Counted from the stretch's first letter, positions 38,813 through 61,268 are shown. The stretch: 64,000 nucleotides of DNA from Arcobacteraceae bacterium (GCA_963662945.1 OY759974.1:768001-832000), one strand, 5' to 3'. Translations and numbers: made by a program. Notes: generated by a model not told the origin, from the letters alone.

Positions 38813-38906
38813 ATTATATAAAAAAATAATTTTACAAGTATTCATACTTTATTCATTGTTTTCATATATAATACCCACTATTTAATACAATTAGGAAGGA
38901 ATGTTA

Positions 38907-41261: not shown

Positions 41262-41414
41262 GCTTGTCTTCTCTATTAAGCACTCTATTTTTACTTTTAT
41301 AGAAATAATTTTTTTAAATATTTTTTATCATTTACTTAGTAATACTTTGGTATAATCGCAAAATTTTTACAAAATGTGACATTTGTGACATTTATAATTT
41401 AGAAAAGGATATTT

Positions 41415-43765: not shown

Positions 43766-43939
43766 CTATTTGTTGTAAGGAATGAAACTATTTGGCATAT
43801 TAGCATCTACACTATTTTTTATCATTGTGTATCCAAGCCCAATAGCCAATAATCCAGCTATTACTAAATAAACAATTTTTCTTTTTTGTGGAGATTCTTT
43901 TCCATCATAATCTTCAATTTGACTTAATGTTGGTTCCAT
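43766..43939 (-). CDS. Unannotated 57-aa single-TM protein
   Basis: Hand translation MEPTLSQIEDYDGKESPQKRKIVYLVIAGLLAIGLGYTMIKNSVDANMPNSFIPYNK*; AAGGA RBS, TATAAT at 43976-43971 and a TTAACA direct repeat upstream. Confidence 0.75.
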   Translation of the reverse strand: MEPTLSQIEDYDGKESPQKRKIVYLVIAGLLAIGLGYTMIKNSVDANMPNSFIPYNK

Positions 43940-43970
43940 TTTTATTTCCTTTTTTTAATTATTTATCCAA

Positions 43971-44002
43971 ATTATAAAATTTCTTTGTTAATCAGATGTT
44001 AA
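43971..44002 (-). promoter_or_regulatory. TTAACA direct-repeat promoter, copy 1 (57-aa gene)
   Basis: Minus strand TTAACA-TCTGA-TTAACA (44002-43986), 9 nt, TATAAT (43976-43971). Confidence 0.7.
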
Positions 44003-44034
44003 TTAACGATTAATTAACATTCCTATACTACCAT
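44003..44034 (+). promoter_or_regulatory. TTAACA direct-repeat promoter, copy 2 (OprC-like receptor)
   Basis: TTAACG-ATTAA-TTAACA (44003-44019), 9 nt, TACCAT (44029-44034). Confidence 0.7.
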
Positions 44035-44060
44035 TTTCATAAATTTTGAAAAGGAAAACA

Positions 44061-46073
44061 ATGCGAAAAAAAATAGTTTTATCAATGGCAGCTGCCCTTG
44101 TAATAAGTCTCCAAGCTGAAGATTTAGGTACTATAGAAGTACAAGAAGAAATAAATACAAAGGTTGTTGGTAACATAAGTACTGAGGAAGTTAAAAATGC
44201 AGATTTAGCAGAAGCTTTAGCAAAAAAATCTGCAAGTGTTTCTCTTATAAGAAGAAGTGGTATTGCAAATGATATCGTTCTTAGAGGTCAAAAAAGAGAC
44301 AATATCAAAGTAACTATTGATGATGGAATGGTTTGTGGAGCTTGTCCAAATAGAATGGATCCACCAACATCACATGTAATTACAACTATGGTTGATAGTG
44401 TAGAGATAAAAGAGGGACCATTTGATGTGACAGAATTTGGAACACTTAGTGGTGGAGTAAAAATTAAAACCGTAGAGCCAAAAGAAGGTTTACATGGAGA
44501 AATTGGTACAACTATTGGAAGTTATGGTTATAAAAAAGGTGTTGTAAGTGTATCTGGTGGAAATGATAAAATAAAAGCTTTATTTACATATTCAAAAGAA
44601 GAAAGTGATCAATATGAAGATGGCGATGGACATACATTAGCTGAACAAACTGCCTTAGTACAAAATCCTGCACAATATAATACTATGAATGATAATAGAT
44701 ATCTAGATGCTTATAAAGATATGAAAGCATATGAAAAAAGATCTATTATGGCAAAAGCAATTGCAAATATTACTGATTCACAAGAAGTTGAAATCAGTGC
44801 TACACAAAATCGAAGTGACGATATCCTTTATCCATCAAGTGGTATGGATGCACTTTACGATGATAGTAATCTTTATAATGTAAAATATACTGCTAGAGAC
44901 TTAGGGGATTTTTCAAAAAAATTAGAAATAAAAGCTTATAGAACAGATGTTGACCATCCTATGGCAATAGATTACAGAATAAAAAATAACTATGTGCCAG
45001 CAGGAAGTAAAGGATTGACAAATCACCTTACAACAGATGTTACTGGTGCAAAAATCATCAATACACTTGATGCTTTAAACAGAGAATTTACAATAGGTTT
45101 AGATACTAGTAATAGAAATTGGGATGGAGATTATTATAGTGACATTAATCCTTTTATAAGAAAAAGTATAAATGATACAGATACAATCAACAAGGCAATA
45201 TTTGTAAAATGTAAAAATCAATTAGATAAACTTACTCTAGAATTAGGTGTAAGATATGATAATACAACAGTTGACACAAATGGGGCAGATCAGGATAATA
45301 AATACACTGATTTCAGTGGAAATATTATGGCAACATATAATAGTGATGAAAATACAAAATATTTTATTGGATTAGGACAAGCTAGCCGTGTTCCAGATGC
45401 AAGAGAACTCTATTTTATAGCTTCTAATGGAACTAGTGTAGGTACTGAAACTTTAAATGCAACTACAAATAGAGAATTAGACTTCGGAACAGAGCATCAC
45501 TATAAAGATGGAAAAATAAAAGCAAAATTTTTCTATAGTGATTTACAAGATTATATCTATTATAGAAACACTGGTGCAGCAACAAATAAATTTGAAAATA
45601 TTGATGCTAAAATATATGGACTTGAACTTAGTGGTGCGTATTACATAAATGATCAGTTTACACTAGATGCCGGTTATACTTGGAAAAGAGGGAAAAAAGA
45701 CAACCCTATTGCAGGACAATCAGATAAAGACTTAGCAGATATTACACCACCAAAATTAACATTAGCACTTAATTATGACTATAATAATTATACAAATGCA
45801 ATGATAGAATTTATCAATGTATCATCATGGAAAAATTATGATAGTGACAATGGGGAGCAACATATTAATGGGTATAATGTAGTAAATATTAAAGCACAAA
45901 CAACAATTGCAAAAAACTTTGAAATTACTATAGGTATTGACAACCTTTTTGATAAAACTTATGCTGTTTCAAATACATATAGAGACTTAACTCTTTTAAG
46001 TGATGGTACAGAAGTAATGCTTCTTAACGAACCAGGAAGATATATCTACACAAGTTTAAAATATAAATTCTAA
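44061..46073 (+). CDS. TonB-dependent receptor, OprC/NosA-like putative copper transporter
   Basis: Signal peptide, DLGTIEV TonB-box-like segment, plug GACPNRMDPP (CxxxM), barrel VDHPM (HxM), NEPGR...YKF end; ATG 44061 after AAGGA. Confidence 0.85.
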   Translation: MRKKIVLSMAAALVISLQAEDLGTIEVQEEINTKVVGNISTEEVKNADLAEALAKKSASVSLIRRSGIANDIVLRGQKRDNIKVTIDDGMVCGACPNRMDPPTSHVITTMVDSVEIKEGPFDVTEFGTLSGGVKIKTVEPKEGLHGEIGTTIGSYGYKKGVVSVSGGNDKIKALFTYSKEESDQYEDGDGHTLAEQTALVQNPAQYNTMNDNRYLDAYKDMKAYEKRSIMAKAIANITDSQEVEISATQNRSDDILYPSSGMDALYDDSNLYNVKYTARDLGDFSKKLEIKAYRTDVDHPMAIDYRIKNNYVPAGSKGLTNHLTTDVTGAKIINTLDALNREFTIGLDTSNRNWDGDYYSDINPFIRKSINDTDTINKAIFVKCKNQLDKLTLELGVRYDNTTVDTNGADQDNKYTDFSGNIMATYNSDENTKYFIGLGQASRVPDARELYFIASNGTSVGTETLNATTNRELDFGTEHHYKDGKIKAKFFYSDLQDYIYYRNTGAATNKFENIDAKIYGLELSGAYYINDQFTLDAGYTWKRGKKDNPIAGQSDKDLADITPPKLTLALNYDYNNYTNAMIEFINVSSWKNYDSDNGEQHINGYNVVNIKAQTTIAKNFEITIGIDNLFDKTYAVSNTYRDLTLLSDGTEVMLLNEPGRYIYTSLKYKF

Positions 46074-46081
46074 TCAATAAC

Positions 46082-46100
46082 AAGAGGGGTTTCCCCTCTT
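46082..46100 (+). terminator. Hairpin after the OprC-like gene
   Basis: AAGAGGGG-TTT-CCCCTCTT. Confidence 0.65.
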
Positions 46101-46112
46101 AATAAAACCTCT

Positions 46113-46144
46113 TTAACACTTACTTAACATTTTTTTTGTAACAT
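46113..46144 (+). promoter_or_regulatory. TTAACA direct-repeat promoter, copy 3 (exbBD)
   Basis: TTAACA-CTTAC-TTAACA (46113-46129), 9 nt, TAACAT (46139-46144). Confidence 0.7.
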
Positions 46145-46167
46145 ATCCAAAAATTTATGGAGAATTT

Positions 46168-46605
46168 ATGAATATAGAGTTATTAAAAGAGATTGTAGAT
46201 TATGGAATTATTGGCCTCTTAGGTTTTATGAGTTTTCTCTCATTTTGGCTTTATATAGAAAGACTTTTATTTTATAAAAATATCAATATCAAAAATTATG
46301 CAAAAAAAGAACAACTCGAAATAGAACTTACAAACAATATCTCAATTATCTCTTCATTTGGTTCAAATGCACCATATATTGGACTTCTTGGAACTGTCTT
46401 TGGTATCATTATCACATTTTACACTATGGGTCAAAGTGGAGATATAGATGTAAAAACTATTATGAGTTCTTTAGGTCTTGCACTTAAAGCTACAGCTATG
46501 GGTCTTCTTGTAGCAATACCAGCAATAATGTTTTATAATCATTTAACAAGAAAAATTGAAGTTAAACTAGCACTTTGGGATATGGAGTTTAAAAGTGCAG
46601 CTTAA
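46168..46605 (+). CDS. exbB: TonB system energizer ExbB
   Basis: SNAPYIGLLGTVFGI, ALKATAMGLLVAIPA. Confidence 0.95.
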   Translation: MNIELLKEIVDYGIIGLLGFMSFLSFWLYIERLLFYKNINIKNYAKKEQLEIELTNNISIISSFGSNAPYIGLLGTVFGIIITFYTMGQSGDIDVKTIMSSLGLALKATAMGLLVAIPAIMFYNHLTRKIEVKLALWDMEFKSAA

Positions 46606-46975
46606 AAAGTTTGATTCTATAAATGTTGTACCATTTATAGATATTATGCTTGTACTTTTAGTCATTGTACTTACAACTGCATCTTTTGTAGCACGTGGCA
46701 TAATACCTGTAGACTTAAGTGAAGGAAAAAGTGCTCTAAAATTAACAGAACAAAAGATTATAACTATCACAATTAAAGACTCTGGAGAATTATTTCTAGA
46801 TAAAGAACTTACTACACATAAAAAAATTGAGGAAAAACTTTCACAACTTAAAACTTCAACACCTATTAGCATAAATTGTGATAAAAATGCAAAATTTGAG
46901 AACTTTGTTCAAGTCATTGATATCTTAAAATTAAAAAACTTCACAAATCTAAGTATTATTACAAAACAAGAATAA
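46595..46975 (+). CDS. exbD: TonB system protein ExbD
   Basis: INVVPFIDIMLVLLVIVLTTASF; GTG start overlapping exbB. Confidence 0.95.
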   Translation: MQLKKFDSINVVPFIDIMLVLLVIVLTTASFVARGIIPVDLSEGKSALKLTEQKIITITIKDSGELFLDKELTTHKKIEEKLSQLKTSTPISINCDKNAKFENFVQVIDILKLKNFTNLSIITKQE

Positions 46976-46994
46976 TCTTATTTATAACTTAAAA

Positions 46995-47026
46995 TTAACA
47001 TCTAATTAACACTTCTTAGTTATTAT
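46995..47026 (+). promoter_or_regulatory. TTAACA direct-repeat promoter, copy 4 (second receptor / DCCP operon)
   Basis: TTAACA-TCTAA-TTAACA (46995-47011), 9 nt, TATTAT (47021-47026); degenerate third repeat ATAACT at 46984. Confidence 0.72.
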
Positions 47027-47058
47027 TCGCAAAAAATTGGGAATGAAAAAGGATGTTA

Positions 47059-49185
47059 ATGAATAACAAGATATGTATATCACTTATCTGTGCACTTGCA
47101 CTAAGTGGAAATGCAGCAGATTTGGGTACTATAAGTGTTGAATCTTCAACAATTGATGATAAATTTGAAAGTAAAAAAACTGAAGTTTCAAATACAGCAA
47201 TTATAACTTCTGAAGATGTAGAGAAAATTCATGCTACTAATGTTGAAAATATACTTAATACAATACCAGGAATTACAGCTTCAAATGTAGGAAATGATAG
47301 AGTTAAGATACACATAAGAGGTATAGATAACCAAATGTATATGGGTGAAAAACCAGGAGTTGCTGTTGTAATTGATGGTGTACCAGTACAAGAAACAACT
47401 GGTAAAATTAATCTAGACCTCGATAATATTGCTTCAATTAAAGTAATCAAAGGAAGTGCAAGTTACCTTTATGGGAATGATGCAATTGCAGGTGCAATAG
47501 TTATAACAACAAAAAGACCAAAAGGTTTAAGTAGTTCAAAATTAGAAACAGAACTTGGTAGTTTTGGATTTAAAAGAATATTAGCTGGAACAAATCAAAG
47601 TTTAGAAAATGGTGCTTTTCAACTACAAGGTACTATACGAGATAGTGATGGTTATTGGGATGATGCATATTTAAAACATAAATCAATTAATGGTAAATAT
47701 CAACACTATCTAAGCGAAACAAGTGATTTAACATTTGGAGCAGATTATACAAAACGAGAAACAGGAGATGGTTCAAGTGTACATGGAGAAACACAATCTA
47801 TACTTAATCCTAAAAGTGTTACTGAAGTTTCTTATGCTGGTTATTATGATACAACACTGATTAAAACTTTTCTAACCTATTCTAATGATATTGATGAGAA
47901 TTCAAATTTTATGGTAAATGTCTCAAGATATGAAGACGATACTACTAACCTTTCTGGATCGACAGATACTAATGGTGATAATATTAATGATGACCACAAA
48001 ACTATATCTGATGAAAAATGGATTCAAAATACATTTAAAAGTGAATATAGAAGGTCTTTTGAGAAAATTGCAATTATGACTGGTATAGATTTAGCAAGAA
48101 ATGAACAAAAGAATAAAAGTATTGCAAATTTAACTGTTGGTGGTTTTAGTCCTCAAACAAAAGGAGATATTACAGGTGATTCTAATAATAATGAAGATAT
48201 CAATGCCATATATTTTGAAGTACAAAACCAATTAACGAACAATTTAACTTCAACAATAAATTTTAGGCATGATAATATAAAATATGATTATAAAAATAAT
48301 CTTGATATGACTCTAAATACTGCACCATCATATGATGCAAATACCTATAGAGTAGGATTTAATTATAAATTAAGTGACACAGATAATATTTACACAAGTT
48401 ATGCAACAGGATTTAGAGCACCAACAGCAGAGCAAATAAGTGGAAATATTGATAAACTTCAAGCAAATCCAACATTTGATATTCCAACTACTCTTGATAT
48501 AGAAACTACGAAGAATATAGAACTAGGAATTAGAGGAGACATCTCATCATTAAAATATGATGCTTCTATTTATCAACTTGATAGAAAAGACTATTTAGGT
48601 GTAAGAGCTGGTTCTTATATTAGAGCTTCTGATGATAAAGCAGATTTAGCCGTAGATAATCTGGGAGATATGAGAAGTAGAGGATTTGAATTAGCTCTTA
48701 ATAGTGATAGAAAAAAAGCCATCTCATTTTCAACTGCTTATACATATTTAGATGCAAAATTTAAAGAATATTCATTAAAACAATTAGTTCAAGACAATGT
48801 TTTTCCAATAGCCGATGTTTATCAAACAGTTAATTTAGCAGGAAAAAGAGTACCTAGAACATCAAAACATACTTTAAATATCACTGTTGACTTTAGACCA
48901 ATTGATGGGCTTACAATATCGCCAGAACTTATAGCAAAAAGTAGTTACTATGCAGATGAATTAAACAAATTCAAACAACCTGGCTATGAAATTATAAATT
49001 TAAGATCAGAATATAAAATAAATAAATCTCTGGAAATTTTTGCTAAAATAGAAAACCTTTTAGATAAGAACTACAATCAGTTCGTAAATGTAAGCTCAAG
49101 TGATATTGCAAATAATATGGAAGATGCAACAATCCGTGTTGCACCACCTAGAGCATATTATGCTGGACTTAGATACAAGTTTTAA
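47059..49185 (+). CDS. TonB-dependent receptor, unknown substrate
   Basis: Signal peptide, DLGTISV, plug IRG...VVIDGVP...IKVIKGSASYLYGNDAIAGAIVITT, GFRAPT, ENLLDK, terminal YKF; start 47059 or 47053. Confidence 0.92.
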   Translation: MNNKICISLICALALSGNAADLGTISVESSTIDDKFESKKTEVSNTAIITSEDVEKIHATNVENILNTIPGITASNVGNDRVKIHIRGIDNQMYMGEKPGVAVVIDGVPVQETTGKINLDLDNIASIKVIKGSASYLYGNDAIAGAIVITTKRPKGLSSSKLETELGSFGFKRILAGTNQSLENGAFQLQGTIRDSDGYWDDAYLKHKSINGKYQHYLSETSDLTFGADYTKRETGDGSSVHGETQSILNPKSVTEVSYAGYYDTTLIKTFLTYSNDIDENSNFMVNVSRYEDDTTNLSGSTDTNGDNINDDHKTISDEKWIQNTFKSEYRRSFEKIAIMTGIDLARNEQKNKSIANLTVGGFSPQTKGDITGDSNNNEDINAIYFEVQNQLTNNLTSTINFRHDNIKYDYKNNLDMTLNTAPSYDANTYRVGFNYKLSDTDNIYTSYATGFRAPTAEQISGNIDKLQANPTFDIPTTLDIETTKNIELGIRGDISSLKYDASIYQLDRKDYLGVRAGSYIRASDDKADLAVDNLGDMRSRGFELALNSDRKKAISFSTAYTYLDAKFKEYSLKQLVQDNVFPIADVYQTVNLAGKRVPRTSKHTLNITVDFRPIDGLTISPELIAKSSYYADELNKFKQPGYEIINLRSEYKINKSLEIFAKIENLLDKNYNQFVNVSSSDIANNMEDATIRVAPPRAYYAGLRYKF

Positions 49186-49199
49186 AAGAGTAAAATAAC

Positions 49200-49859
49200 T
49201 TGGAACTTACCCCATATCTCTCTATATTTCTTATAGGACTTAGTTTTGGAGCAACGGCATGCATGTTTTCATGTATGCCGTTTCTTACTCCAATATTGGT
49301 AAAGAGTTCTAACAATATTAAAGAATCTTTAGGTGTAATGATTCCTTTTAGTTTAGGAAGAATTTTCACTTATACCATGATTGCTATTTTAGCATTTGCA
49401 AGTTCTTTATTCATAAAAGAGCTTTTAAAAAACAATACACTTTTGAGTTATATTTTAGGAACAGTTACTATTATCTTAGGTTTCACAATGCTTTATAATA
49501 GCTATAAAAACAATAAAGGATGCGGTATCCATAAACCTATAGTAAAAGAACAAAGTTTTTCAAAACTAGGTTTTTTTACTATGGGTGCAACTATATCTAT
49601 AAATCTATGTACACCTGTAATTTCACTGATAACAGTTTCAAGTAGCACTACTACAATCTATTCAGCAATCGCTTTTGGAATAGCTTTTGGTGTTGGGGCT
49701 GTTTTATTTACACTGTTATTTTACGGATTTTTTTTCTCTACACTTATTAGAGGATTGCTTGAACAATTTAACCAGTATAAAAAACATGTAGAAGTTATAG
49801 CTTCACTGTTTTTAATACTTGTTGGTATTTTAATAATCAGTGGCAAGTTGTCACTATAA
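49200..49859 (+). CDS. DsbD_2/UreH-like (TauE/SafE-type) multi-TM membrane protein
   Basis: About six TM helices; TACMFSCMP near the N-terminus, FSLGRIFTY, NLCTP, AFGIAFG; TTG start. Confidence 0.7.
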   Translation: MELTPYLSIFLIGLSFGATACMFSCMPFLTPILVKSSNNIKESLGVMIPFSLGRIFTYTMIAILAFASSLFIKELLKNNTLLSYILGTVTIILGFTMLYNSYKNNKGCGIHKPIVKEQSFSKLGFFTMGATISINLCTPVISLITVSSSTTTIYSAIAFGIAFGVGAVLFTLLFYGFFFSTLIRGLLEQFNQYKKHVEVIASLFLILVGILIISGKLSL

Positions 49860-49868
49860 AGGAACAAA

Positions 49869-52592: not shown

Positions 52593-53601
52593 AATCAAAC
52601 AACTTGTAAATAATATGAATCTTATCAAAGTAAGATTTACTATTCAATTACTGACTTTTATTTTATTTGTTTATGGTGGTTATTTTGCCATTGATTTTGG
52701 TTCAAGACTGCCTATTTTTGCCTGTCCTTATAATAAAGAAGCAGCTGGAGCTTGTTATTTAATTCCATTACAACATCAGTTAGGTATGCCAGCACAAATA
52801 TTACTTGGTGGGGCTGGAATTGCAGTTATTACTGGATTTTTAACATTTCTTTTTTGGTTTATATTTCTAAATAAAGCTTGGTGTGGATATGTATGTCCTT
52901 TTGGAACATTACAAGATTGGCTAACAATGCTTAGAAAAAATATGGGTATACGTTTTTCAACATATACACAAAATCAATTTGAAAAACTTTCAAAAATAAA
53001 ATATATCCTTTTAGCTATTGTTATTTTAGTACCTCTTCTTATGGGTGTTGGCGTTTTTGGAAGAGAATGGTCTGCTGCATTTTGTCAAATCTGTCCAGCA
53101 CGAATCATCTCTCCTATGTTTAGTGGAGATTTCTCTCAATGGACAATAGACTTTTCTACTAAAACAGCCATGGTATTAACTGCTATTGGGATGATATTTG
53201 CTGGATTATTTTTAATTGGTAGTTTTGTAAAAAAAAGATTCTTTTGCTTCTTTTGTCCGATGAGTGCCTTGCATTATATTTTTTCAAAGTTCTCAATTGT
53301 AAGTTTACAAAAAGATGGAAGTAAATGTACACGATGTGGAGATTGTTATGCTGTATGTGATATGCAGATAAAAGATATAGCAGATGATGTTACAAGTACA
53401 AATATCTTAAGAGATGATTGTATTTTATGTTTAAAATGTATAGCTGCATGTCCGGAAGATGATGCACTGCATTTTGATATATTAAAATTCAAAACTTTTA
53501 GCTCTACAAAACAAGGTTTTGAAAAGAGAATGGGAATAGAAAGACCAAAACAAGCTGAGGCGAAGTTTCCTCGAAAAGGATTAAATGATGAGCAACAATG
53601 A
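52585..53601 (+). CDS. NapH/MauN-like membrane 4Fe-4S ferredoxin
   Basis: WCGYVCPFG, FCQICP, FFCFFCP, CTRCGDCYAVC, CILCLKCIAACP. Confidence 0.85.
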   Translation: MSKIKQLVNNMNLIKVRFTIQLLTFILFVYGGYFAIDFGSRLPIFACPYNKEAAGACYLIPLQHQLGMPAQILLGGAGIAVITGFLTFLFWFIFLNKAWCGYVCPFGTLQDWLTMLRKNMGIRFSTYTQNQFEKLSKIKYILLAIVILVPLLMGVGVFGREWSAAFCQICPARIISPMFSGDFSQWTIDFSTKTAMVLTAIGMIFAGLFLIGSFVKKRFFCFFCPMSALHYIFSKFSIVSLQKDGSKCTRCGDCYAVCDMQIKDIADDVTSTNILRDDCILCLKCIAACPEDDALHFDILKFKTFSSTKQGFEKRMGIERPKQAEAKFPRKGLNDEQQ

Positions 53602-54868
53602 GAATCATAAAATAGAAACACCACTTGAAAAACAAAACAGACATAAAGCTATGGAAGCAATTAAGGTAATTAATACTTTAAAAGAAGAGTTTAAATCTCC
53701 TATAAAATCTATGGATTATTTTTATACACTTTTTGAAGATGTATATTGTCATCAAAAATCACTTCATGCTGATAAAGTAAAAGTGGGAACCATGTGTATT
53801 CAAATACCAAGTGAAATTATATATGCACTTGATGGTGTTCCTATTCGACTTTGTAACGGATTTTATACAGATGATGAGCTAGGAAGTGATCTTATGCCTC
53901 AAAAATCTTGTCCACTGGTTAAAGCAAGTGTTGGGCACTTGTCAAGTCAAAATTTAAGTGACAAACCACATATGATTTATAGTCCTACAACTTGTGATCA
54001 AAAAACAAAAGCTGGTGCAACTATTGAAAGTTTTGGATATGAGGTAGTTGATGTAGATTTCCCAAGAACAAAAGAGAGTGAGGTAAGTCGTGAATTTTTT
54101 AGAAGAAGTATCAGAAATTTTGCCATAGATTTATCAAAAAAAACTGGAAAAAAACTCACTAAAAAAAATTTAAAAAGCTCCATTGGAAAAGTTGGTTATG
54201 CACAATCTTTATATCATAGACTATCTGATTTAAGAAAAAATAAAAATGTACCAATATTAGGTGTTGATATGTTTTTAGTTACCAATGCTTTTTTCTTTGA
54301 TAAAATTGACAATTGGATAAAAGCTACAGAAATTTTACTGCATGACTTAGAGTTAAGGGTAAAAGAAAATATTCATGTAGCAGGAAAAATCAGTCCAAGA
54401 ATAGTTTATACAGGTTCACCACCTATTTTCCCAAATTATAAAATACCATTACTTATTGAAGAATCAGATGCAGTTATAGTTGCAGATGAAACTTGCAGTT
54501 CAAATAGAATGTTCAACGATCGAGTTGCAGTGGATGAATGGTTTGTAAATGATATGTTGGATTCTATGGCAGATAAATATCTTAAGGCTTGTACTTGTCC
54601 AATATTTACAAAAAATGATGACCGTATTCGAAGAATTATAGAACTTGTTCGTTCATATGATGCAGATGGTGTTATCTATCAAGCTTTTGCTGGTTGTACT
54701 GTATATGAGTTAGAACAAAGAAGTGTTTTAGAAGCTATGGAAAAAGAGGGGATCTCTATACTTTATTTAGAAAGTGATTATTCACCTAGCCAAAGTGGAC
54801 AGCTAAGTACCAGAGTTGAAGCATTTATAGAATCACTCAAAATGAAAAAAAGAAAAAAAGGAAAATAG
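53585..54868 (+). CDS. 2-hydroxyacyl-CoA dehydratase-family Fe-S protein, putative double-cubane cluster protein (DCCP)
   Basis: Single 427-aa chain with Cys71 (GTMC), Cys90 (RLC), Cys109 (SCPLVK), Cys137 (TTCD), Cys304 (DETC), Cys336/338, Cys371, and the family C-terminus ESDYS...GQLSTRVEAFIE. Confidence 0.8.
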   Translation: MMSNNENHKIETPLEKQNRHKAMEAIKVINTLKEEFKSPIKSMDYFYTLFEDVYCHQKSLHADKVKVGTMCIQIPSEIIYALDGVPIRLCNGFYTDDELGSDLMPQKSCPLVKASVGHLSSQNLSDKPHMIYSPTTCDQKTKAGATIESFGYEVVDVDFPRTKESEVSREFFRRSIRNFAIDLSKKTGKKLTKKNLKSSIGKVGYAQSLYHRLSDLRKNKNVPILGVDMFLVTNAFFFDKIDNWIKATEILLHDLELRVKENIHVAGKISPRIVYTGSPPIFPNYKIPLLIEESDAVIVADETCSSNRMFNDRVAVDEWFVNDMLDSMADKYLKACTCPIFTKNDDRIRRIIELVRSYDADGVIYQAFAGCTVYELEQRSVLEAMEKEGISILYLESDYSPSQSGQLSTRVEAFIESLKMKKRKKGK

Positions 54869-54869
54869 T

Positions 54870-55673
54870 ATGAAATATTTTGCTGGAATCGATATAGGTT
54901 CAACTGCCATTAAAATCTCAATAGCTGATGAAAATAAAAATCTTGTAGGACACAAAATCAGTGCAAGTGGAAGTATGTTTTATAAATATGCTCATGAAAC
55001 TTTAGATGCACTTGTTTCAGAAATAGGGATAAAAAAAGAAGATATTATATACACTGTAGCAACTGGTTATGGAAGAAAAATATTTAAAGAAGCTGATGAA
55101 AATATTAGTGAAATTACTGCAAATGCGATAGGTGCACGAGCTGCCGCTAAAGAATATGGAGAGATTAAAACTATTATTAATATTGGTGGTCAAGATAGTA
55201 AAGCAATTTCACTAGATGAAGAGGGAAATGTAACAAATTTTGCTATGAATGACAGATGTGCAGCTGGTACTGGAAAATTTCTTGATGCATGTGCTATGAA
55301 TCTTGAAATAACAGTAGAAGAACTTGGAGATAAACATTTTGCCTCAACTGGAACACCATTATCAATCAATAGTACTTGTGCAGTATTTGCAGAGAGTGAA
55401 ATTATAGGACTTTTAGGGAATAGTCATAGTGTCGAAGATATTGTATGTGGTGTACACTATTCTATTGCAAAAAGAATTGTAAAACTTGTAAAAAGAGTTG
55501 GTGTCAAAGAAGGAGTATATTTTGATGGTGGTCCAGCACTTAATACAGGATTAGTCAATGCACTTGAAAATGAACTTAGTTGTAAGATATTTATTCCTCA
55601 ATATCCACAAATCACTACATCTTATGGAGCAGCGATTATTGGAGTAGATTCTTATAATTACGAAAATGAATAA
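54870..55673 (+). CDS. ASKHA-type [4Fe-4S] ATPase activator (HgdC/BadG family; DCCP reductase-like)
   Basis: GIDIGST, ATGYGR, IGGQDSK, MNDRCAAGTG, INSTCAVFAESE, GGPA, YGAA. Confidence 0.92.
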   Translation: MKYFAGIDIGSTAIKISIADENKNLVGHKISASGSMFYKYAHETLDALVSEIGIKKEDIIYTVATGYGRKIFKEADENISEITANAIGARAAAKEYGEIKTIINIGGQDSKAISLDEEGNVTNFAMNDRCAAGTGKFLDACAMNLEITVEELGDKHFASTGTPLSINSTCAVFAESEIIGLLGNSHSVEDIVCGVHYSIAKRIVKLVKRVGVKEGVYFDGGPALNTGLVNALENELSCKIFIPQYPQITTSYGAAIIGVDSYNYENE

Positions 55674-55677
55674 TTAA

Positions 55678-58600
55678 ATGTTTGACAAAACTATAAAATT
55701 TTTTATTGAAAATTATAAAATAAACTATGCTTTATTTATATTCTTATTTATTGTCGGAATCTATTCTTATACAAAAATTCCTAAAGAAGTACAACCAACT
55801 ATTGAACCTAGCACTATAAGGGTAAGCGGAAATTACAGTGGAGCTTCTGTTGACATTTTAAATAAAATGGCTGTCATACCTTTAGAAAATGAAGTAAAAA
55901 ATATTGTTGGTGTAGATAATATTATTACAAATATCAATCCAGGTAAATTTTCTATCACTTTAGAACTTGATAAATACGAGAAAAAAGAGGATATAAAAGA
56001 AAATGTAAAAGATGCAATTGCAATGATTATCTCTGATTTACCAGCAGATATGGATGAACCTTTGATTAAAGCTGTTGCTCATGCACGTTCATTAATGTAT
56101 GTTTCAGTTCTTTCTACAAAAATCTCTAGAGATGATCTTTTAAAAATTGCAAAAGATTTAAAAACAACTCTTTTAGGCATCCCTTTTATTTCAGATATTA
56201 CAATATTTGGTGAATCAGATGAATATTATGAAATACAAATTGATGAAAAAAAAATAGAAGCTTTTGGACTAGAAAAAAAAGATATCTCTTCAATAATTGC
56301 TGAACTCTCTTATACTTTTCCAGCAGGAAAAATGGAAGGGAAAAAAAATCAATTTTATCTTTCAACTGCAAATGGGAAAAAAAGTGCTGAAAACTTAGCA
56401 AATACACTTTTAAAAATAAATGATAAAACAATCTATTTTAAAGATATAGCTACCATTACAAAACGTTATGAAGATTCTTCAACACTTGCTAGTATGAATG
56501 GGAAAGGCGCTATTACACTTGCTATCTCACAAAATCCAAGAGGTGATGCCATAACATTATCAGAACAAGTGAGAGATGTACTTGATAAATCAAAAAAAGC
56601 AAATATTACTTTTGATATTAAAAGAGATAATTCATTTCAAGTAAAAGAGAGTTTAAATATAGTTTTCTCAAATATCATTTTTGGAATACTATTAATTTGT
56701 TTATTTACTATTGTTCTTATTAATTCCCGTATGGCATTAGTTATTATTATGGGTATACCAACTTCTTTTGTTATAGGTGCAATCTATTTTTATTTTACAG
56801 GATATAGTATTAATGTACAATCACTTGTAGGAGTACTTTTAGCAATTGGTATTATTGTTGATGATGCAATTGTTGTAAGTGAAAATATTCAACAATATAT
56901 TGAACGTGGCTATCCACCAAAAGAAGCTGCATATTTGGGAACAAAAGAGATGGCAAAACCAGTTTTTTGGGCATCTGTAACTACTCTTTTCTCATTTATA
57001 CCATTGTTAATGATTAGTGGTAGAATGGGTGAAATTATTCAGCTTATTCCTATAGCATTTAGTGCACTTATTTTTGCTTCACTTATTGAGTCATTCATCT
57101 TTTTACCTATACATGCTTCCCATATTTTAAATAATAATTCAAAAACCTTATCATGGGAAAAAAGCAAAAATATTTACACTAAAATTTTACATAACTTGAT
57201 GAAATATAAAAAAAGTTTTTTACTGATTTTTATTATCAGCGTTCCATTACTCATATTTTTTAGTGCAAAGCATTCAAAATTTCATATGTTTCAAAAATTT
57301 GATTCATCAAATGTAAACATTACCTTTAAAGGGAATAAAAATATGACACTTGAAGAAACATCTTTAATGGTACGTCAAATAGAACAAGACCTTTTAAAAT
57401 CCAAAGAGAAATTTTTTATAAAAAATGTAAGTTCAACAGCTGGTCATAGAAGAACAGCAACGGGAGAAACAGAAATTTATCCTTATGTTGGGAATATTAC
57501 AGTTGAACTTTATGAAAAAAAACCAAGTAATTTTTTCGAAGCATATATTAGCCCTTTGTTTAGTATTTATTATGAAAAAGAGGGACGAATACGAACCCTT
57601 CCATCTAAAGTTGTATCAAAACAATTGCGAGGTTGGTTAAAAGAACAACATTATAAAAGAAAATATAAATTAGAGCAAATAATGGTTGTTGAAAATAGAA
57701 TGGGAGCAACAAAAGCTGATATTAGAATTGGGTTAGTCAGTAATGATTACCAAAAAGCTTTACAAGGGGTAGATGAACTTCAAAAAGAGATTGAAAATAT
57801 AAAAGGGGTTAAATATAGTGGGAATAATATTAAATTTGGGATTGATGAACTGAAATTTCATATTAATAGCTATGGAGAATCACTTGGTGTAACAGAAAAA
57901 TATCTTGGTAATTTCTTAGCAAATGTCTATATGGATAAAAAAATAGCAACAATTTATGGTACAAATGAATCATTTGAGGTTAAATCAAAATCACTTTATA
58001 GTGATAATTTTGATTACTTTAAAAATATCACTATACCTTTAAAAGATTCAAGAGTAGTACACTTGCACGAGATATGTGATATATCTACCATAAAATCACT
58101 TGAGAAATTAGTCAAAGATAATGGTATTACTACATTTTATGTTTTTGCAAACGTTGATAATGATATCATCACTTCAAGTGAGGTTTTAGAAAAAATACAA
58201 CCAACAATAAAGAAACTAAAACAAAATGGTATAAAATTTATTTTCAAAGGGGAACAAGAGCAAAAGAAAAAACTAGAAATAGAGATGCTTCTATCAATAC
58301 TTTTAGCTCTTAGCTTAATATTTTTATCACTTCTTTATCTTTTTAACTCCATTAAAGAAACTCTTTTAGTGATGTCTGTTATTCCATTTTCTATGCTTGG
58401 GCTTTATATGGGACATTTTATTTTAGGATTACATATAACAGTTCCATCACTTATTGGTGCAATTGGACTTGCTGGTGTTATTGTTAATGATGGAATTATT
58501 ATGATGGACTCTATTAAAAAATCAACAACCCAAAAAGAGTTTTTTCACAATGCTGCTAAAAGATTTAGACCAATTATTTTAACCTCTATTACTACAATTG

Positions 58601-58758
58601 TTGGATTGTTTACACTTATCTTTTTTGCAACTGGTATGGCTGTTAGTTTTCAACCAATGGCTGTAACAATAGGGTTTGGACTTCTTTGGGGGACTATTTT
58701 AAATCTTTTATATTTACCTGTAATGTATGGATATTTTAATAATAAGCATTTAAAGTGA
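55678..58758 (+). CDS. RND superfamily (AcrB/CusA-like) transporter
   Basis: 1026 aa, 1+5 TM repeat topology, GIIVDDAIVVSENI, GVIVNDGII, RFRPIILTSITT. Confidence 0.92.
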   Translation: MFDKTIKFFIENYKINYALFIFLFIVGIYSYTKIPKEVQPTIEPSTIRVSGNYSGASVDILNKMAVIPLENEVKNIVGVDNIITNINPGKFSITLELDKYEKKEDIKENVKDAIAMIISDLPADMDEPLIKAVAHARSLMYVSVLSTKISRDDLLKIAKDLKTTLLGIPFISDITIFGESDEYYEIQIDEKKIEAFGLEKKDISSIIAELSYTFPAGKMEGKKNQFYLSTANGKKSAENLANTLLKINDKTIYFKDIATITKRYEDSSTLASMNGKGAITLAISQNPRGDAITLSEQVRDVLDKSKKANITFDIKRDNSFQVKESLNIVFSNIIFGILLICLFTIVLINSRMALVIIMGIPTSFVIGAIYFYFTGYSINVQSLVGVLLAIGIIVDDAIVVSENIQQYIERGYPPKEAAYLGTKEMAKPVFWASVTTLFSFIPLLMISGRMGEIIQLIPIAFSALIFASLIESFIFLPIHASHILNNNSKTLSWEKSKNIYTKILHNLMKYKKSFLLIFIISVPLLIFFSAKHSKFHMFQKFDSSNVNITFKGNKNMTLEETSLMVRQIEQDLLKSKEKFFIKNVSSTAGHRRTATGETEIYPYVGNITVELYEKKPSNFFEAYISPLFSIYYEKEGRIRTLPSKVVSKQLRGWLKEQHYKRKYKLEQIMVVENRMGATKADIRIGLVSNDYQKALQGVDELQKEIENIKGVKYSGNNIKFGIDELKFHINSYGESLGVTEKYLGNFLANVYMDKKIATIYGTNESFEVKSKSLYSDNFDYFKNITIPLKDSRVVHLHEICDISTIKSLEKLVKDNGITTFYVFANVDNDIITSSEVLEKIQPTIKKLKQNGIKFIFKGEQEQKKKLEIEMLLSILLALSLIFLSLLYLFNSIKETLLVMSVIPFSMLGLYMGHFILGLHITVPSLIGAIGLAGVIVNDGIIMMDSIKKSTTQKEFFHNAAKRFRPIILTSITTIVGLFTLIFFATGMAVSFQPMAVTIGFGLLWGTILNLLYLPVMYGYFNNKHLK

Positions 58759-58767
58759 TATTTAAAA

Positions 58768-58799
58768 TTAACACTTAATTAACACTTCTTTTATAAAAT
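58768..58799 (+). promoter_or_regulatory. TTAACA direct-repeat promoter, copy 5 (tonB)
   Basis: TTAACA-CTTAA-TTAACA (58768-58784), 9 nt, TAAAAT (58794-58799). Confidence 0.72.
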
Positions 58800-58831
58800 G
58801 GAAGTGTTAATATGGGAAAAGGAGAGTAGTT

Positions 58832-59548
58832 TTGAATATAAAAAGATATTTTAATTCGTTTTTTGTAGCTTCTATATTCTATAGTTTCTTAATTATTACT
58901 CTTCTTTATTCATTTGAAGAAGTCAATATTGCACCTTCAAAAACACAACATTCAATCCAAAATGTCAAATTTACCCTTATTAATTTACCAAAAGAAATAG
59001 AAAAACCTGAAGTTGAAAAACAAGAGATTGTTAAAAAAGAACCTCAACCTAAACAAATAGAACCAAAAGTTGTTAAAAAAATTAATCCTAAAAAAATATC
59101 TCCTAAAAAAATTGTTAAAAAAATAGAACCAAAAGTTGAAAAAAAAGAAAAAGAAATTGTTAAAAAAACAGAAAAGATAAAAAAACAAATTGTTGCAAAT
59201 CAAATTAAAAAAAGTGACTCTACTGAAAAAAAAGAAACTGTAAAAACTGATTTAAAACAATTAAAAATGAAACAACATAAATATTATTCTCAAATCAAAC
59301 AAACAATTGATAAAAATAAATCATATCCTCAAGTTGCTGTACGAAGAGGAATTCAAGGTGAAGTAAAAATACAATTTACAATATCAAAAGATGGTGAGTT
59401 ACTTTCATATAAAATATTAGATGGACAAAAAATATTTTTTAAGTCTATCAGTGAAGCTATACAAAATAGTTTCCCTCTTATTCCTCCAAATGATATTTTT
59501 ACATCAAACCTAGATTTAAAATTAACATTACACTATAAGTTGTATTAA
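58832..59548 (+). CDS. tonB: TonB energy transducer
   Basis: AAGGAG RBS and TTG start, N-terminal TM, Lys/Glu/Pro-rich linker, YPQVAVRRGIQGEVKIQFTI. Confidence 0.9.
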   Translation: MNIKRYFNSFFVASIFYSFLIITLLYSFEEVNIAPSKTQHSIQNVKFTLINLPKEIEKPEVEKQEIVKKEPQPKQIEPKVVKKINPKKISPKKIVKKIEPKVEKKEKEIVKKTEKIKKQIVANQIKKSDSTEKKETVKTDLKQLKMKQHKYYSQIKQTIDKNKSYPQVAVRRGIQGEVKIQFTISKDGELLSYKILDGQKIFFKSISEAIQNSFPLIPPNDIFTSNLDLKLTLHYKLY

Positions 59549-61195: not shown

Positions 61196-61268
61196 AATGA
61201 TTACATTAATTGGTAATTTTCCTAGTATATACTACAATATCAATTAAGATATTCTACGAAGGTAATCA

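Follow-up and report, generated by a model that had tools for sequence, protein, structure and literature searches.

CcoG/RdxA/FixG is a cupric reductase and one of several described proteins that the locus reported here resembles in part. The DCCP and DCCP-R proteins of Carboxydothermus hydrogenoformans are another case. In the available part of PMC7317905, substrate reduction by the known members of DCCP and its related families takes place at the protein's own cluster, a long N-terminal extension in DCCP is linked to small-molecule substrates, and the Carboxydothermus reference protein has no known physiological role. The part of 10.1101/2021.01.07.425746 at hand describes NapH-like proteins that carry electrons across the membrane to extracytosolic partners and finds DUF4198 proteins together with membrane reductases and TonB components. 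According to the portion of PMC12663993 available, Zn, Co, Ni and Cu all bind to DUF4198/Zcp in vitro, and elsewhere family members are linked with starvation for zinc and iron. Apart from the present locus, DCCP genes are reported to be connected in genomes with metal transport only at the selenocysteine-assisted organometallic (SAO) loci, described in the accessible text of 10.1101/2022.07.06.499078. Our literature search found no paper describing TonB/copper proteins linked to an ATP-driven DCCP, in agreement with a sequence-only reading of this DNA, which knew of no characterised TonB-DCCP/activator system.

Gene content and conservation of the cassette

The locus occupies positions 43766-59548 of the window, the 64,000-nucleotide stretch of an Arcobacteraceae genome that was analysed. 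ORF calls, Pfam and NCBIfam place all of the named genes in this interval, and the coordinates bear out the gene content and tight packing described earlier. The features are as follows.

43766..43939, minus strand: 57-aa ORF, divergent from receptor 1 (ORF call)
43986..44019, no strand: back-to-back repeat pair in the divergent promoter region (exact and one-mismatch sites)
43986-44002, minus strand: exact repeat site (motif search)
44003-44019, plus strand: fifth repeat site, one mismatch (motif search)
44058..46073, plus strand: TonB-dependent receptor 1, OprC-like (Pfam Plug and barrel)
46113..46129, plus strand: repeat site before exbB, 39 bp from the start codon (motif search)
46168-46605, plus strand: exbB (Pfam)
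46595-46975, plus strand: exbD (Pfam)
46995..47011, plus strand: repeat site before receptor 2, 42 bp from the start codon (motif search)
47053..49185, plus strand: TonB-dependent receptor 2 (Pfam)
49200..49859, plus strand: DsbD_2-family membrane protein (Pfam PF13386)
49869..52592, plus strand: 907-aa membrane polyferredoxin fusion (Pfam Fer4_5, NosL)
52585..53601, plus strand: NapH-like membrane ferredoxin (Fer4_5 and dicluster motifs)
53585..54868, plus strand: double-cubane-type protein (DCCP subfamily, HgdB/BcrC family; HGD-D; PF06050)
54870..55673, plus strand: HgdC-type ATPase ("archerase", BcrAD_BadFG; PF01869)
55678..58758, plus strand: RND permease, multidrug (HAE-1) type (ACR_tran)
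58768..58784, plus strand: repeat site before tonB, 48 bp from the start codon (motif search)
58832..59548, plus strand: tonB (TonB_C)

Receptor 2 is the first gene of a seven-gene operon, with intergenic spacings, from the coordinates, of +14, +9, -8, -17, +1 and +4 bp through to the RND pump. The receptor, DsbD_2 protein, polyferredoxin fusion, NapH-like ferredoxin, DCCP and ATPase form a six-gene core. Position 43766, where the earlier reading began, belongs to the minus-strand 57-aa ORF, which has a single hydrophobic segment (residues 22-40) and no Pfam match. Within the genus, it is conserved beside the cassette (58-88% identity).

The 427-aa DCCP-type protein matches PF06050 with 294 bits and NF040772 (double_cubane) with 318 bits, the cut-off of the latter being 350. 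The match to DCCP (6ENO, 7YYL) has E 1e-60 and aligns all seven cysteines; it starts at residue 41, leaving a long N-terminal extension. Of 74 family members checked, 73 retain these cysteines, with four mis-called ORFs left out of the count. The protein defines its own subfamily, with the nearest 50%-identity representatives at 65, 54 and 47% and the next at ≤44%, and it is encoded by the only PF06050 gene in the genome. Public annotation names the family 2-hydroxyacyl-CoA dehydratase, and weak matches to the BzdN and HadC models are seen. The adjoining ATPase matches TIGR00241 with 221 bits, above the cut-off of 125; its C130 and C170 are invariant in 26 sequences, and it is presumed to be the electron-injecting partner of DCCP. 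The earlier identification of a DCCP-like Fe-S protein and its activator is confirmed.

The membrane proteins of the operon carry conserved candidate metal ligands. The DsbD_2 protein has six hydrophobic segments and a CMxxCM motif, with C21, M22, C25, M26, C108 and C137 identical in 48/48 sequences, and distantly matches CcdA (5VKV, E 2e-4). In the 907-aa protein, the Fer4_5 and NosL matches support the polyferredoxin-NosL fusion proposed from sequence, but that proposal missed a third periplasmic domain with a predicted DUF4198/Zcp-like metal-capture fold. Foldseek on a structural model (mean pLDDT 69.5) retrieves Zcp (9MHL, E 1e-8), the DUF4198 protein 9GCB, and NosL (7OG7 and 7ZNQ_L); the Pfam DUF4198 score is 19.7, below the cut-off of 34 bits. 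Residues C492, M494, H504, C516, H519 and C520 of the NosL domain are conserved in 23/23 sequences and H737 of the fusion in 24/24, and the protein ends in a C-terminal anchor with a basic tail after the last hydrophobic segment. The conserved residues of the DsbD_2 protein and NosL domain would be soft-metal ligands, and we count them in favor of copper. The NapH-like ferredoxin has sixteen cysteines, scores 82-89 bits against NapH models, below their cut-offs, and is always encoded directly upstream of the DCCP gene. The closest solved chains to the RND pump are MtrD-like pumps; no membrane-fusion or outer-membrane partner was found in the operon.

Among solved chains, receptor 1 matches only OprC by sequence (E 1.5e-30). 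Its GACPNRMD and DHxM segments align to the copper-site residues CxxxM and HxM of OprC, as the sequence-only reading had noted, and its score against TIGR01778 (TonB-copper) is 188 bits, below the cut-off of 472. Both motifs occur in 9 of 13 receptor-1-like proteins, and the OprC-like receptor is an optional member of the cassette. Receptor 2 is closest to PqqU and YncD (E ~3e-23) and resembles small-molecule and siderophore receptors; the CPNRM motif is absent from it and from all 52 receptor-2-like proteins checked. ExbB matches TIGR02805 (exbB2) above cut-off with 187 bits, ExbD matches TIGR02804 (ExbD_2) with 116 bits against a cut-off of 123, and the tonB product has one N-terminal hydrophobic segment.

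The cassette is conserved elsewhere, both by synteny in Campylobacterota and as a reduced core in metagenome loci. Counting Campylobacterota loci that hold the long or middle fusion form and enough flank, DCCP accompanies the fusion in 38/38, with the ATPase in 36/37, the NapH-like gene in 41/42, DsbD_2 in 40/41 and the receptor in 35/38. The RND pump is optional (17 of 32 loci with enough flank). Biosynthetic genes do not recur beside the cassette in the clustered neighborhoods of Campylobacterota and metagenome loci, and this result, with the patchy occurrence of the pump, leaves the earlier suggestion that the system makes and exports a chelator unsupported. The reduced core, seen in 47 metagenome loci with GC 0.28-0.70, runs receptor, membrane-anchored DUF4198 protein, NapH-like, DCCP, ATPase. 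There, the ATPase is found in 36/36 loci, the NapH-like gene in 25/28, the DUF4198 protein in 22/24 and the receptor in 14/19; DsbD_2 is clustered in only 12/47.

A shared promoter repeat and its candidate regulator

The direct repeat TTAACA-N5-TTAACA is present on each transcription unit of the locus, confirming that the units share one promoter motif. The window holds four exact matches versus 0.10 expected, a number reached in 0/100 shuffles. A site stands 27-48 bp ahead of each of receptor 1, exbB, receptor 2 and tonB, and the exact site at 43986-44002 (minus strand) faces the 57-aa ORF. The position of the site ahead of receptor 2 is conserved across genera. The entire 2.5-Mb genome has only five exact copies, whereas a backwards control pattern has six, so the signal lies in the clustering and placement of the sites rather than in the genome-wide count; in some genomes, genome-wide counts barely exceed that control. 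Of 61 loci, most have the repeat ahead of the first gene of the cassette. With up to one mismatch allowed, 102/130 sites fall no more than 250 bp ahead of a gene for the cassette, the TonB system, NosL or the regulator, and only 5/130 are intragenic (1.01 Mb).

The repeat also precedes genes for other copper proteins. These include PCu(A)C chaperone genes in two genomes (G008, G433), NosL genes in 5/5 further genomes, OprC-like receptors in related Campylobacterota genomes and, in G015 and G020, the COX1 gene with an exact match. The window's own genome has it with one mismatch 86 bp upstream of ccoN and, again with one mismatch each, before both NosL genes. Multihaem cytochrome c and LTXXQ genes carry it as well, and some sites precede unrelated genes (obg, sugar nucleotidyltransferase, polysaccharide-export).

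An OmpR-type regulator and a short kinase adjoin the cassette in 11 loci, and the repeat lies upstream of the regulator gene in six of them. Given this adjacency and the repeat that precedes the regulator gene itself, the cassette is probably switched on by a dedicated two-component regulator of the OmpR type that binds TTAACA-N5-TTAACA. In the window's genome, the regulator orthologue is far from the cassette, and no repeat site was found within 400 bp upstream of it. Of the 24 genomes sampled from the genus, 21 have the kinase orthologue, including some that lack the cassette.

Copper-gene context and proposed role

In other phyla, the reduced core stands beside nosZ, nosDFYL-like genes, cbb3 genes and ccoG, which answers the earlier question of co-occurrence with nosZ or cbb3 oxidase. 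The nosZ gene adjoins the core in L161, L196 and L198, and NosD, NosF, NosL and NosY-like genes flank it in L183, L184, L192, L195 and L198. The L198 locus reads ccoNO, ccoP, x, receptor, DUF4198, NapH-like, DCCP, ATPase, followed by fasciclin, nosZ, x, nosL, nosD, nosF, x, nosL, ccoG, where x is an ORF without a Pfam match. The window's genome, which is 99.99% complete, gave 0 matches to nosZ with either model and has two true CcoG genes (TIGR02745) elsewhere, so a role in copper handling in this genome would be independent of N2O reductase.

The gene set is conserved, co-regulated and genomically associated with copper proteins. Because a copper-gene regulon exists in Campylobacterota and copper-gene neighbors recur elsewhere, copper supply to cuproenzymes is the best-supported role. 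The earlier interpretation is thus partly supported: its conservation and copper link are, its chelator synthesis and export are not. We infer which metal is handled, which way the electrons flow, what chemistry takes place and which signal induces the genes, as well as what the ATP-driven reductase does; no RNA run was found to contain the stretch. In our proposal, TonB-energized receptors would import copper or one of its complexes into the periplasm, where it would be captured by the NosL and DUF4198 domains tethered to the membrane polyferredoxin. An ATP-boosted, very low-potential reductive step would come from the three invariant members, the NapH-like ferredoxin, DCCP and the ATPase. 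We prefer a path in which electrons energized by the ATPase pass via DCCP to the NapH-type membrane iron-sulfur proteins and then to a periplasmic metal site, where they release copper held in a refractory form. Through CMxxCM, the DsbD_2 protein may carry Cu(I) across the inner membrane or keep periplasmic cysteines reduced, and the RND pump, where present, may remove spent ligand or excess metal. Such outward flow would have precedent in NapH-like proteins and in the DUF4198-polyferredoxin fusion of Campylobacterota. The cuproenzymes supplied would be cbb3 oxidase here and N2O reductase elsewhere. We give this explanation as a whole about even chances. Reduction of Cu(II) to Cu(I) does not need low-potential electrons, which leaves the chemical need for DCCP unexplained.

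The same copper-supply role could be served by electrons flowing in reverse, which we consider unlikely. The quinol pool would feed the NapH-like protein and then the ATPase, and DCCP would be a terminal cytoplasmic reductase of a small copper-bearing cargo or ligand brought in by the receptor and DsbD_2. ATPases of this type all depend on an electron donor, and only the NapH-like gene shows strict linkage (41/42; 25/28); DsbD_2 is likewise nearly constant in Campylobacterota, but its scarcity in the metagenome loci places this importer outside the universal core. The fusion of a DUF4198 domain to a NapH-type protein also points to electron exchange on the periplasmic side, and to our knowledge, the NapH-family proteins described, including those in the available part of 10.1101/2021.01.07.425746, all serve extracytosolic partners. 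Carboxydothermus DCCP, in the part of PMC7317905 at hand, reduces small molecules at its own cluster, and its long N-terminal extension, a feature also present here, accompanies a narrow substrate channel. By this analogy, the extension would favor a cytoplasmic substrate over an outward relay. That the cargo is instead zinc, nickel, cobalt or iron, or several metals, with the copper genes belonging to a shared envelope-stress/respiratory regulon, appears improbable. The in vitro metal range of DUF4198/Zcp and its starvation links, the fold match to the nickel-containing structure 9GCB, the motif-free receptor 2 with its small-molecule/siderophore-like character, and the repeats at multihaem cytochrome c and LTXXQ genes would all suit it. 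However, copper-specific families recur in two independent ways, through the regulon shared by OprC-like receptors, NosL, PCu(A)C and ccoN in Campylobacterota and through physical adjacency in other phyla, and no zinc, nickel, cobalt or iron uptake or regulator genes recur in the clustered neighborhoods.

In vitro, a reductant of very low potential is required for resting CuZ. The low-potential electrons might accordingly activate or repair periplasmic copper centers such as CuZ in a NosR-like manner, with the receptor in a side role rather than in uptake. The core lies inside nos clusters in several metagenome loci, and NapH-like proteins include nos-associated ones in the available text of 10.1101/2021.01.07.425746; nevertheless, the complete lack of nosZ matches in the window's genome, the membership of the TonB receptor in the core (35/38; 14/19) and the repeat on the TonB system itself make this quite improbable. 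Most remote is the view of the iron-sulfur pair as a conventional 2-hydroxyacyl-CoA dehydratase or aryl-CoA reductase whose carbon substrate enters through receptor 2; the dehydratase version is the counter-explanation raised by the sequence-only reading. This view agrees with the public annotation and the weak BzdN and HadC matches, but a single PF06050 gene allows no alpha/beta pair, the seven DCCP cysteines are kept across the family, and CoA-transferase, CoA-ligase and acyl-CoA genes do not recur nearby in the clustered neighborhoods. Copper supply thus remains our preferred reading: a conserved import gate, copper proteins and an ATP-powered reductase together point to a route, so far undescribed, by which enzymes obtain copper.

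Comparison with known systems

The DCCP-type protein shares with DCCP/DCCP-R the fold family, the seven cysteines, the N-terminal extension and an adjoining HgdC-type ATPase gene. However, it is only about 37-40% identical to Carboxydothermus DCCP, its cysteine spacing is X18, X18, X27 rather than X19, X18-19, X29, it scores below the NF040772 cut-off, and it is tied to a TonB receptor and always preceded by a NapH-like ferredoxin gene. SAO loci, in the accessible part of 10.1101/2022.07.06.499078, belong to anaerobes and combine ABC transport, selenoproteins and a MerB-like lyase; here uptake is by TonB, with no ABC importer in the cassette and, unlike in selenoprotein-using SAO, no SelD found above cut-off in the window's genome. 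Receptor 1 keeps the CxxxM and HxM of OprC/NosA (6FOK and related) but falls below the TIGR01778 cut-off (188 vs 472 bits) and is an optional neighbor, whereas receptor 2, the operon's own receptor, lacks the copper motif.

The 907-aa protein resembles CcoG as a membrane Fer4_5 protein with cytoplasmic 4Fe-4S clusters, a copper context and a C-terminal beta-sandwich domain. It is not matched by TIGR02745, Fer4_18 and FixG_C are not detected in it, and it adds periplasm-facing NosL and DUF4198 domains. NosR/NosGH with NosDFYL (7ZNQ for NosDFYL) supplies N2O reductase with electrons and copper. As in that system, a NapH-type membrane iron-sulfur protein is joined to a periplasmic domain and the NosL copper chaperone fold is present; nosD, nosF, nosL and nosY-like genes surround the core in other phyla. 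In contrast to NosR/NosGH, there is no FMN-binding domain and no nosZ in the genome, and the locus has in addition a TonB receptor and an ATP-driven DCCP. With Zcp of Neisseria gonorrhoeae and the PepSY-like/DUF4198/TonB clusters, the locus shares a periplasmic metal-capture fold and, as far as the available sources go, the co-occurrence of a membrane electron carrier with TonB-dependent uptake. Compared with other DUF4198 proteins, the domain here is membrane-anchored with a conserved cytoplasmic tail and is fused to a polyferredoxin in Campylobacterota, and the electron carrier is NapH-like, fed by or feeding DCCP.

Components of the cassette

The locus runs from a small minus-strand ORF to tonB, and its genes from receptor 2 to the RND permease are spaced at +14, +9, -8, -17, +1 and +4 bp. 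The inventory in the sequence-only reading is correct as listed; what it overlooked is the third periplasmic domain of the 907-aa protein.

Genes of the locus, assigned from ORFs, Pfam and NCBIfam.
43766-43939, minus: 57-aa ORF with one hydrophobic segment
44058-46073, plus: OprC-like TonB receptor (receptor 1)
between receptors 1 and 2, plus: exbB and exbD
47053-49185, plus: TonB receptor (receptor 2)
49200-49859, plus: DsbD_2 membrane protein
49869-52592, plus: 907-aa membrane polyferredoxin with a NosL domain
52585-53601, plus: NapH-like ferredoxin
53585-54868, plus: HGD-D protein, 318 versus 350 bits on the curated double-cubane model
54870-55673, plus: HgdC-type ATPase
55678-58758, plus: RND permease
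58832-59548, plus: tonB

Directly upstream, at 38901-43754, lie two genes for methyl-accepting chemotaxis proteins, the second with a dCache_3 sensor; several genomes of the genus show them in synteny with the small ORF and the cassette. In genome G020, the stretch that separates the ATPase gene from receptor 1 encodes two histidine kinases, with PilJ-N and dCache_3 sensors. Downstream of tonB (59627-62843) are genes for a BicA/SulP-type transporter and an HD_5-domain protein, which lack the repeat described below and keep their synteny in close relatives only. In genome G023, the cassette region is followed downstream by a reverse-transcriptase gene and by a fusion gene of type I restriction-modification (L015:940-4434).

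The protein encoded at 53585-54868 has the HGD-D fold (PF06050, 294 bits against a cut-off of 28) and aligns to the double-cubane cluster protein (DCCP) of Carboxydothermus (6ENO, 7YYL) with an E value of 1e-60. Residues C71, C90, C109, C137, C304, C338, and C371 align with all seven DCCP cysteines, which are retained in 73 of 74 subfamily members once four mis-called ORFs are set aside. The spacing here is X18, X18, X27, X166, X33, X32; three gaps are 1-2 residues short of the published CX19CX18-19CX29CX166-170CX32-34CX32C motif (PMC7317905), and the strict pattern is unmatched. Because the score on NF040772 (318.4 bits) falls below the equivalog cut-off of 350, the protein is filed as a separate subfamily rather than as an equivalog. 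Its nearest 50%-identity representatives number three, at 65, 54, and 47% identity. Beyond them, the closest full-length representatives reach at most 39%, similar to ordinary DCCPs, and shorter partial ones reach 44-45%. The ATPase passes the activase model TIGR00241 (221 bits against 125), and its C130 and C170, which we take to be cluster ligands, are invariant in 26 sequences. As a member of a DCCP subfamily, the protein may carry an [8Fe-9S] cluster and undergo ATP-dependent reduction.

Public annotation describes these proteins only generically, as 2-hydroxyacyl-CoA dehydratases. Both 2-hydroxyacyl-CoA dehydratase and class I benzoyl-CoA reductase require two paralogous HGD-D subunits (alpha and beta), and such an alpha/beta enzyme is impossible here because the whole genome holds a single PF06050 gene. 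On the strength of that gene count and the seven DCCP cysteines, we reject the ordinary CoA-ester dehydratase that the sequence-only reading had set against its own interpretation. The subfamily also breaks a reported correlation: a preprint finds SelD in nearly all DCCP-bearing genomes (10.1101/2022.07.06.499078), and the genome containing the window has no SelD above cut-off.

The 907-aa fusion protein was modeled from 27 sequences with a mean pLDDT of 69.5, its iron-sulfur part being poorly predicted. The NosL domain spans residues 485-592 (PF05573, 55 bits against a cut-off of 24). Its fold matches 7OG7 (TM 0.65 on the target) and 7ZNQ_L in Foldseek, and its Cys, Met, and His residues are kept in 23 of 23 sequences. 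The domain at residues ~620-870, where pLDDT is mostly 70-90, misses the PF10670 (DUF4198) cut-off at 19.7 versus 34 bits. Foldseek matches it to the fold of Zcp (9MHL; E 1e-8, TM 0.57 on the target) and to a second DUF4198 structure, 9GCB (E 2e-5); a sequence search of residues 620-870 against solved chains returned chance-level rows only, so the domain was recognized by fold search alone. Zcp, which captures metal in the periplasm, binds Zn, Co, Ni, and Cu in vitro (PMC12663993); its metal site has three histidines, H29, H31, and H142. Candidate counterparts in the fusion are H639, kept in 22/24 sequences, H641 in 18/24, and H737 in 24/24. From the hydrophobic segments and the basic tail that follows the last of them, residues ~443-870 are predicted to lie in the periplasm. 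CcoG identity was considered for the fusion and rejected. The protein is not among the six TIGR02745 (CcoG/RdxA/FixG) matches in the genome, Pfam reports neither Fer4_18 nor FixG_C in it, and the CcoG model picks two other genes instead.

Among the remaining components, receptor 1 has OprC as its only match among solved chains (E 1.5e-30). Its GACPNRMD and DHPM segments align to the CxxxM (plug) and HxM (barrel) motifs of OprC, and its TIGR01778 score is under the equivalog cut-off (187.8 versus 472 bits). The nearest solved relatives of receptor 2 are PqqU and YncD, and a motif check found no copper motif in it. The CMxxCM motif and two further cysteines of the DsbD_2 protein are identical in 48 of 48 sequences. 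The 338-aa protein is designated NapH-like rather than NapH, since it shares the Fer4_5 and dicluster motifs with NapH and falls below the equivalog cut-offs (88.6 versus 234 bits on NF007013; 81.9 versus 213 on TIGR02163).

Conservation within and beyond Campylobacterota

Searching one genome per species with the fusion-protein alignment gave 247 relatives and returned 77 distinct loci, with titles from Arcobacteraceae, Halarcobacter, Sulfurimonas, Sulfurovum, Nitratifractor, and Sulfurospirillum. Sixty-one loci were analyzed, and the 16 others, which match the NosL part only, were left out; eight of the 61 without a complete fusion ORF were excluded from the counts. These counts cover the long (~900-920 aa) and middle (~775-795 aa) fusion forms with enough flank. 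A second scan, of metagenomes, used the 47%-identity DCCP representative and yielded 47 loci with GC contents of 0.28-0.70.

Presence of components at loci with enough flank (Campylobacterota; metagenome contigs).
DCCP: 38/38 Campylobacterota
ATPase: 36/37 Campylobacterota; 36/36 metagenome
NapH-like: 41/42 Campylobacterota; 25/28 metagenome
DsbD_2: 40/41 Campylobacterota
Receptor: 35/38 Campylobacterota; 14/19 metagenome
DUF4198: 22/24 metagenome
RND: 17/32 Campylobacterota
exbB within 8 kb: 17/28 Campylobacterota

The middle fusion form lacks the NosL domain and keeps both the DUF4198 domain and the DCCP, and the short form (~610 aa; NosL, no DUF4198) has a receptor as its sole companion in 5 of 6 loci. 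Because the forms differ in this way, the DUF4198 domain, DsbD_2, NapH-like protein, DCCP, and ATPase are read as one co-traveling module. The DCCP orthologue occurs in 18 of 401 high-quality genomes of the phylum sample, across six families, and in 9 of 25 of the genus sample, the window's genome included; the two largest families of the phylum sample have none (0/118 and 0/158).

The metagenome loci hold a reduced core in the order receptor, membrane-anchored DUF4198-like protein, NapH-like protein, DCCP, and ATPase. The DUF4198-like protein (327-383 aa) has a signal peptide, HGG and HSCxxGH motifs, and a C-terminal anchor, and it ends in a conserved tail, KPFxEVxF-D/N-E. In some loci (L201, L162, L163) the core is joined by DsbD_2 and by a full RND set that includes the outer-membrane and fusion proteins. 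An apparent 737-aa DCCP-ATPase fusion in four high-GC loci (L165, L167, L168, L171) was rejected as an ORF artifact in which the ATPase frame runs on upstream; none of the seven cysteines align in these ORFs, and the loci were scored as DCCP-bearing on the basis of tblastn matches.

Several neighborhoods outside the phylum are copper-enzyme clusters. nosZ neighbors the core in L161, L196, and L198, and NosD/F/L/Y-like and NosG/H-like genes do so in L183, L184, L192, L195, and L198. L198 reads ccoNO, ccoP, an ORF without a Pfam match, receptor, DUF4198, NapH-like, DCCP, ATPase, fasciclin, nosZ, an unmatched ORF, nosL, nosD, nosF, an unmatched ORF, nosL, and ccoG. Conservation of the cassette, which the sequence-only reading had wanted tested, is borne out by the Campylobacterota counts and by the reduced core in the 47 metagenome loci, as is the co-occurrence with nosZ or cbb3 oxidase genes that it had also suggested checking. 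A genome search found no nosZ in the window's genome, where the likely client is the cbb3 oxidase.

Three further features recur at these loci. The cytoplasmic tail behind the DUF4198 membrane anchor is conserved across phyla, which suggests contact with a cytoplasmic or membrane partner. Proteins bearing several EF-hand motifs are encoded close to the cassette in three lineages unrelated to one another, as well as in four Campylobacterota loci (cluster 22). In L185, L186, L192, L194, and L196, the receptor follows a ~129-aa ORF that has no Pfam match (cluster 11).

Positions of tail and EF-hand proteins.
L195:7974-8981, L201:7830-8960, L165:7991-8971: proteins with the conserved DUF4198 tail
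window 52470-52592: the same tail in the window
L030:18996-19607, L201:3682-4386, L165:6226-7248: EF-hand proteins

The shared repeat and its regulon

The sequence-only reading had given all units one promoter motif, and this motif is real. The direct repeat TTAACA-N5-TTAACA occurs in four exact copies in the window against 0.10 expected, a number reached by none of 100 shuffles, with a one-mismatch copy at 44003. Receptor 1, exbB, receptor 2, and tonB are each preceded by a site at a distance of 27-48 bp, and one site faces the minus-strand small ORF. The whole 2.5-Mb genome has five exact copies versus six of a backwards control pattern; because the control is no rarer, the evidence lies in clustering, promoter-proximal placement, and conservation, not in the genome count. 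The fifth genomic copy, before obg, is probably there by chance. In DNA this rich in AT, a promoter/terminator consensus scan of the window told nothing, with 85 promoter-like sites where 98 were expected.

Across the 61 Campylobacterota loci (1.01 Mb), 130 sites with at most one mismatch were found, and 102 of them lie within 250 bp upstream of a cassette, TonB-system, NosL, or regulator gene (receptor 64, exbB 15, DsbD_2 7, regulator 6, NosL 5, tonB 4, fusion 1). Five are intragenic, and 15 have no downstream ORF of at least 70 aa, several of these facing the small ORF.

OmpR-type regulators typically recognize direct repeats spaced at 11 bp. A winged-helix regulator of this type and a short kinase, whose periplasmic loop is almost absent, adjoin the cassette in 11 loci. 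This adjacency and the form of the repeat make OmpR-type two-component control a candidate. The orthologous pair in the window's genome is distant from the cassette (C1:2417886-2419404, the regulator gene occupying 2417886-2418551), with no site within 400 bp upstream, and the kinase orthologue is found in 21 of 24 genus genomes, some of them cassette-free. Another OmpR-type regulator-kinase pair, encoded in the window at ~4219-5995, ranks second among the matches to the cassette-linked pair (44% and 34% identity).

Genome G008, which lacks the cassette and bears the kinase, has four exact sites before three units: one upstream of a PCu(A)C copper chaperone gene, one upstream of an OprC-like receptor, and two at a receptor, short-fusion, and exbBD-tonB unit. 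In G015 and G020, the COX1 gene is preceded by an exact site at a distance of 87 bp. In the window's genome, one-mismatch sites lie 86 bp upstream of ccoN and before both free-standing NosL genes; tblastn with the G008 protein (E up to 1e-5) gave no PCu(A)C match there. In five further genomes of other genera, the 20 ORFs downstream of exact sites were classified as NosL (5, one per genome), TonB receptor (4), tonB or exbB (2), multihaem cytochrome c (2), and one each of PCu(A)C, OmpR-type regulator, receiver-kinase hybrid, RND, and LTXXQ; two were clearly unrelated. The regulon points to copper.

LTXXQ (CpxP/Spy-like) genes have the repeat upstream in two genomes (L116:929-1426, L134:1560-1967), and multihaem cytochrome c genes are preceded by it in two others. 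A small NosL-like gene paired with a second DsbD_2 paralogue in the window's genome (C1:567593-568806; L096:4590-5806, minus strand) has only a two-mismatch copy ~21 bp upstream; in other genera this pair adjoins the regulator-kinase pair.

Proposed electron flow and copper role, and comparison with known systems

A fixed module is co-regulated with, and adjoins, copper-handling and copper-enzyme genes in independent lineages. In the mechanism we propose, copper, as such or as a complex, would enter through the receptors and be captured by the tethered NosL and DUF4198 domains, and the NapH-like/DCCP/ATPase trio would supply an ATP-boosted reductive step. In the version we favor, electrons would travel outward, from the ATPase to the DCCP, then to the NapH-type membrane clusters and a periplasmic metal site. 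The main rival keeps the copper role and reverses the path: electrons would enter at the NapH-like protein, and the DCCP would be a terminal cytoplasmic reductase. Outward flow is favored because NapH-like proteins are described as carriers of electrons across the membrane to extracytosolic partners, because DUF4198 proteins are described as partnering membrane reductases in TonB-linked clusters (both 10.1101/2021.01.07.425746), and because the DUF4198 domain is fused to a NapH-type protein in Campylobacterota. Class I benzoyl-CoA reductase offers a precedent for a double-cubane cluster that serves as a relay (PMC11971306). A complex prediction with two ATPase copies and NapH-like residues 228-338 scored 0.02 and carries no evidential weight either way.

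All versions share a chemical weakness: the reduction of Cu(II) to Cu(I) does not need so low-potential a reductant. The actual substrate may be either a copper-sulfide species or a tight ligand. In the most specific form of outward flow, which we regard as possible but less likely than not, the DCCP would export very low-potential electrons via NapH-type ferredoxins to the tethered periplasmic DUF4198/NosL site, stripping copper from forms closed to ordinary reductases, such as copper-sulfide clusters or tight TonB-imported organic complexes. The sequence-only reading had also allowed that the system makes and exports a chelator; this was dropped, as no biosynthetic genes recur beside the cassette in the neighborhoods clustered.

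Two studies describe the physiological function and natural substrate of DCCPs as not known (PMC7317905; 10.1101/2022.07.06.499078). Here, one DCCP subfamily gains fixed partners (a NapH-like ferredoxin, a DUF4198 protein, and a TonB receptor), together with a regulon and a copper-enzyme context that recur in unrelated lineages. The question of DCCP function therefore becomes testable in cultured, non-pathogenic strains that carry the cassette; these include Sulfurovum sp. CS9, Sulfurimonas sp. CS5, Arcobacter arenosus, Arcobacter sp. FWKO B, and Sulfurimonas sp. CVO. The results also suggest a job for membrane-anchored DUF4198 proteins and orphan NapH-like proteins, and they bear on copper supply for cbb3 oxidase and N2O reductase in sulfidic or copper-poor waters. 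For the greenhouse gas N2O, no biological sink other than this reductase is known.

A literature search, with most subscription journals and supplementary tables outside it, found no link of DCCP/HgdB-type proteins to TonB uptake, NosL, or nosZ. Passages of a Sulfurovum sulfur transcriptome paper mention TonB receptors only generally, and those of a Kordia genome paper describe only nosZ-nosLDFY. If copper stripping by outward electron flow is true, it would give a DCCP its first physiological role and would be a new way of acquiring trace metals at the expense of energy, common to sulfur-oxidizing Campylobacterota and N2O-reducing bacteria of other phyla. The component families are known; the system as a whole matches none described.
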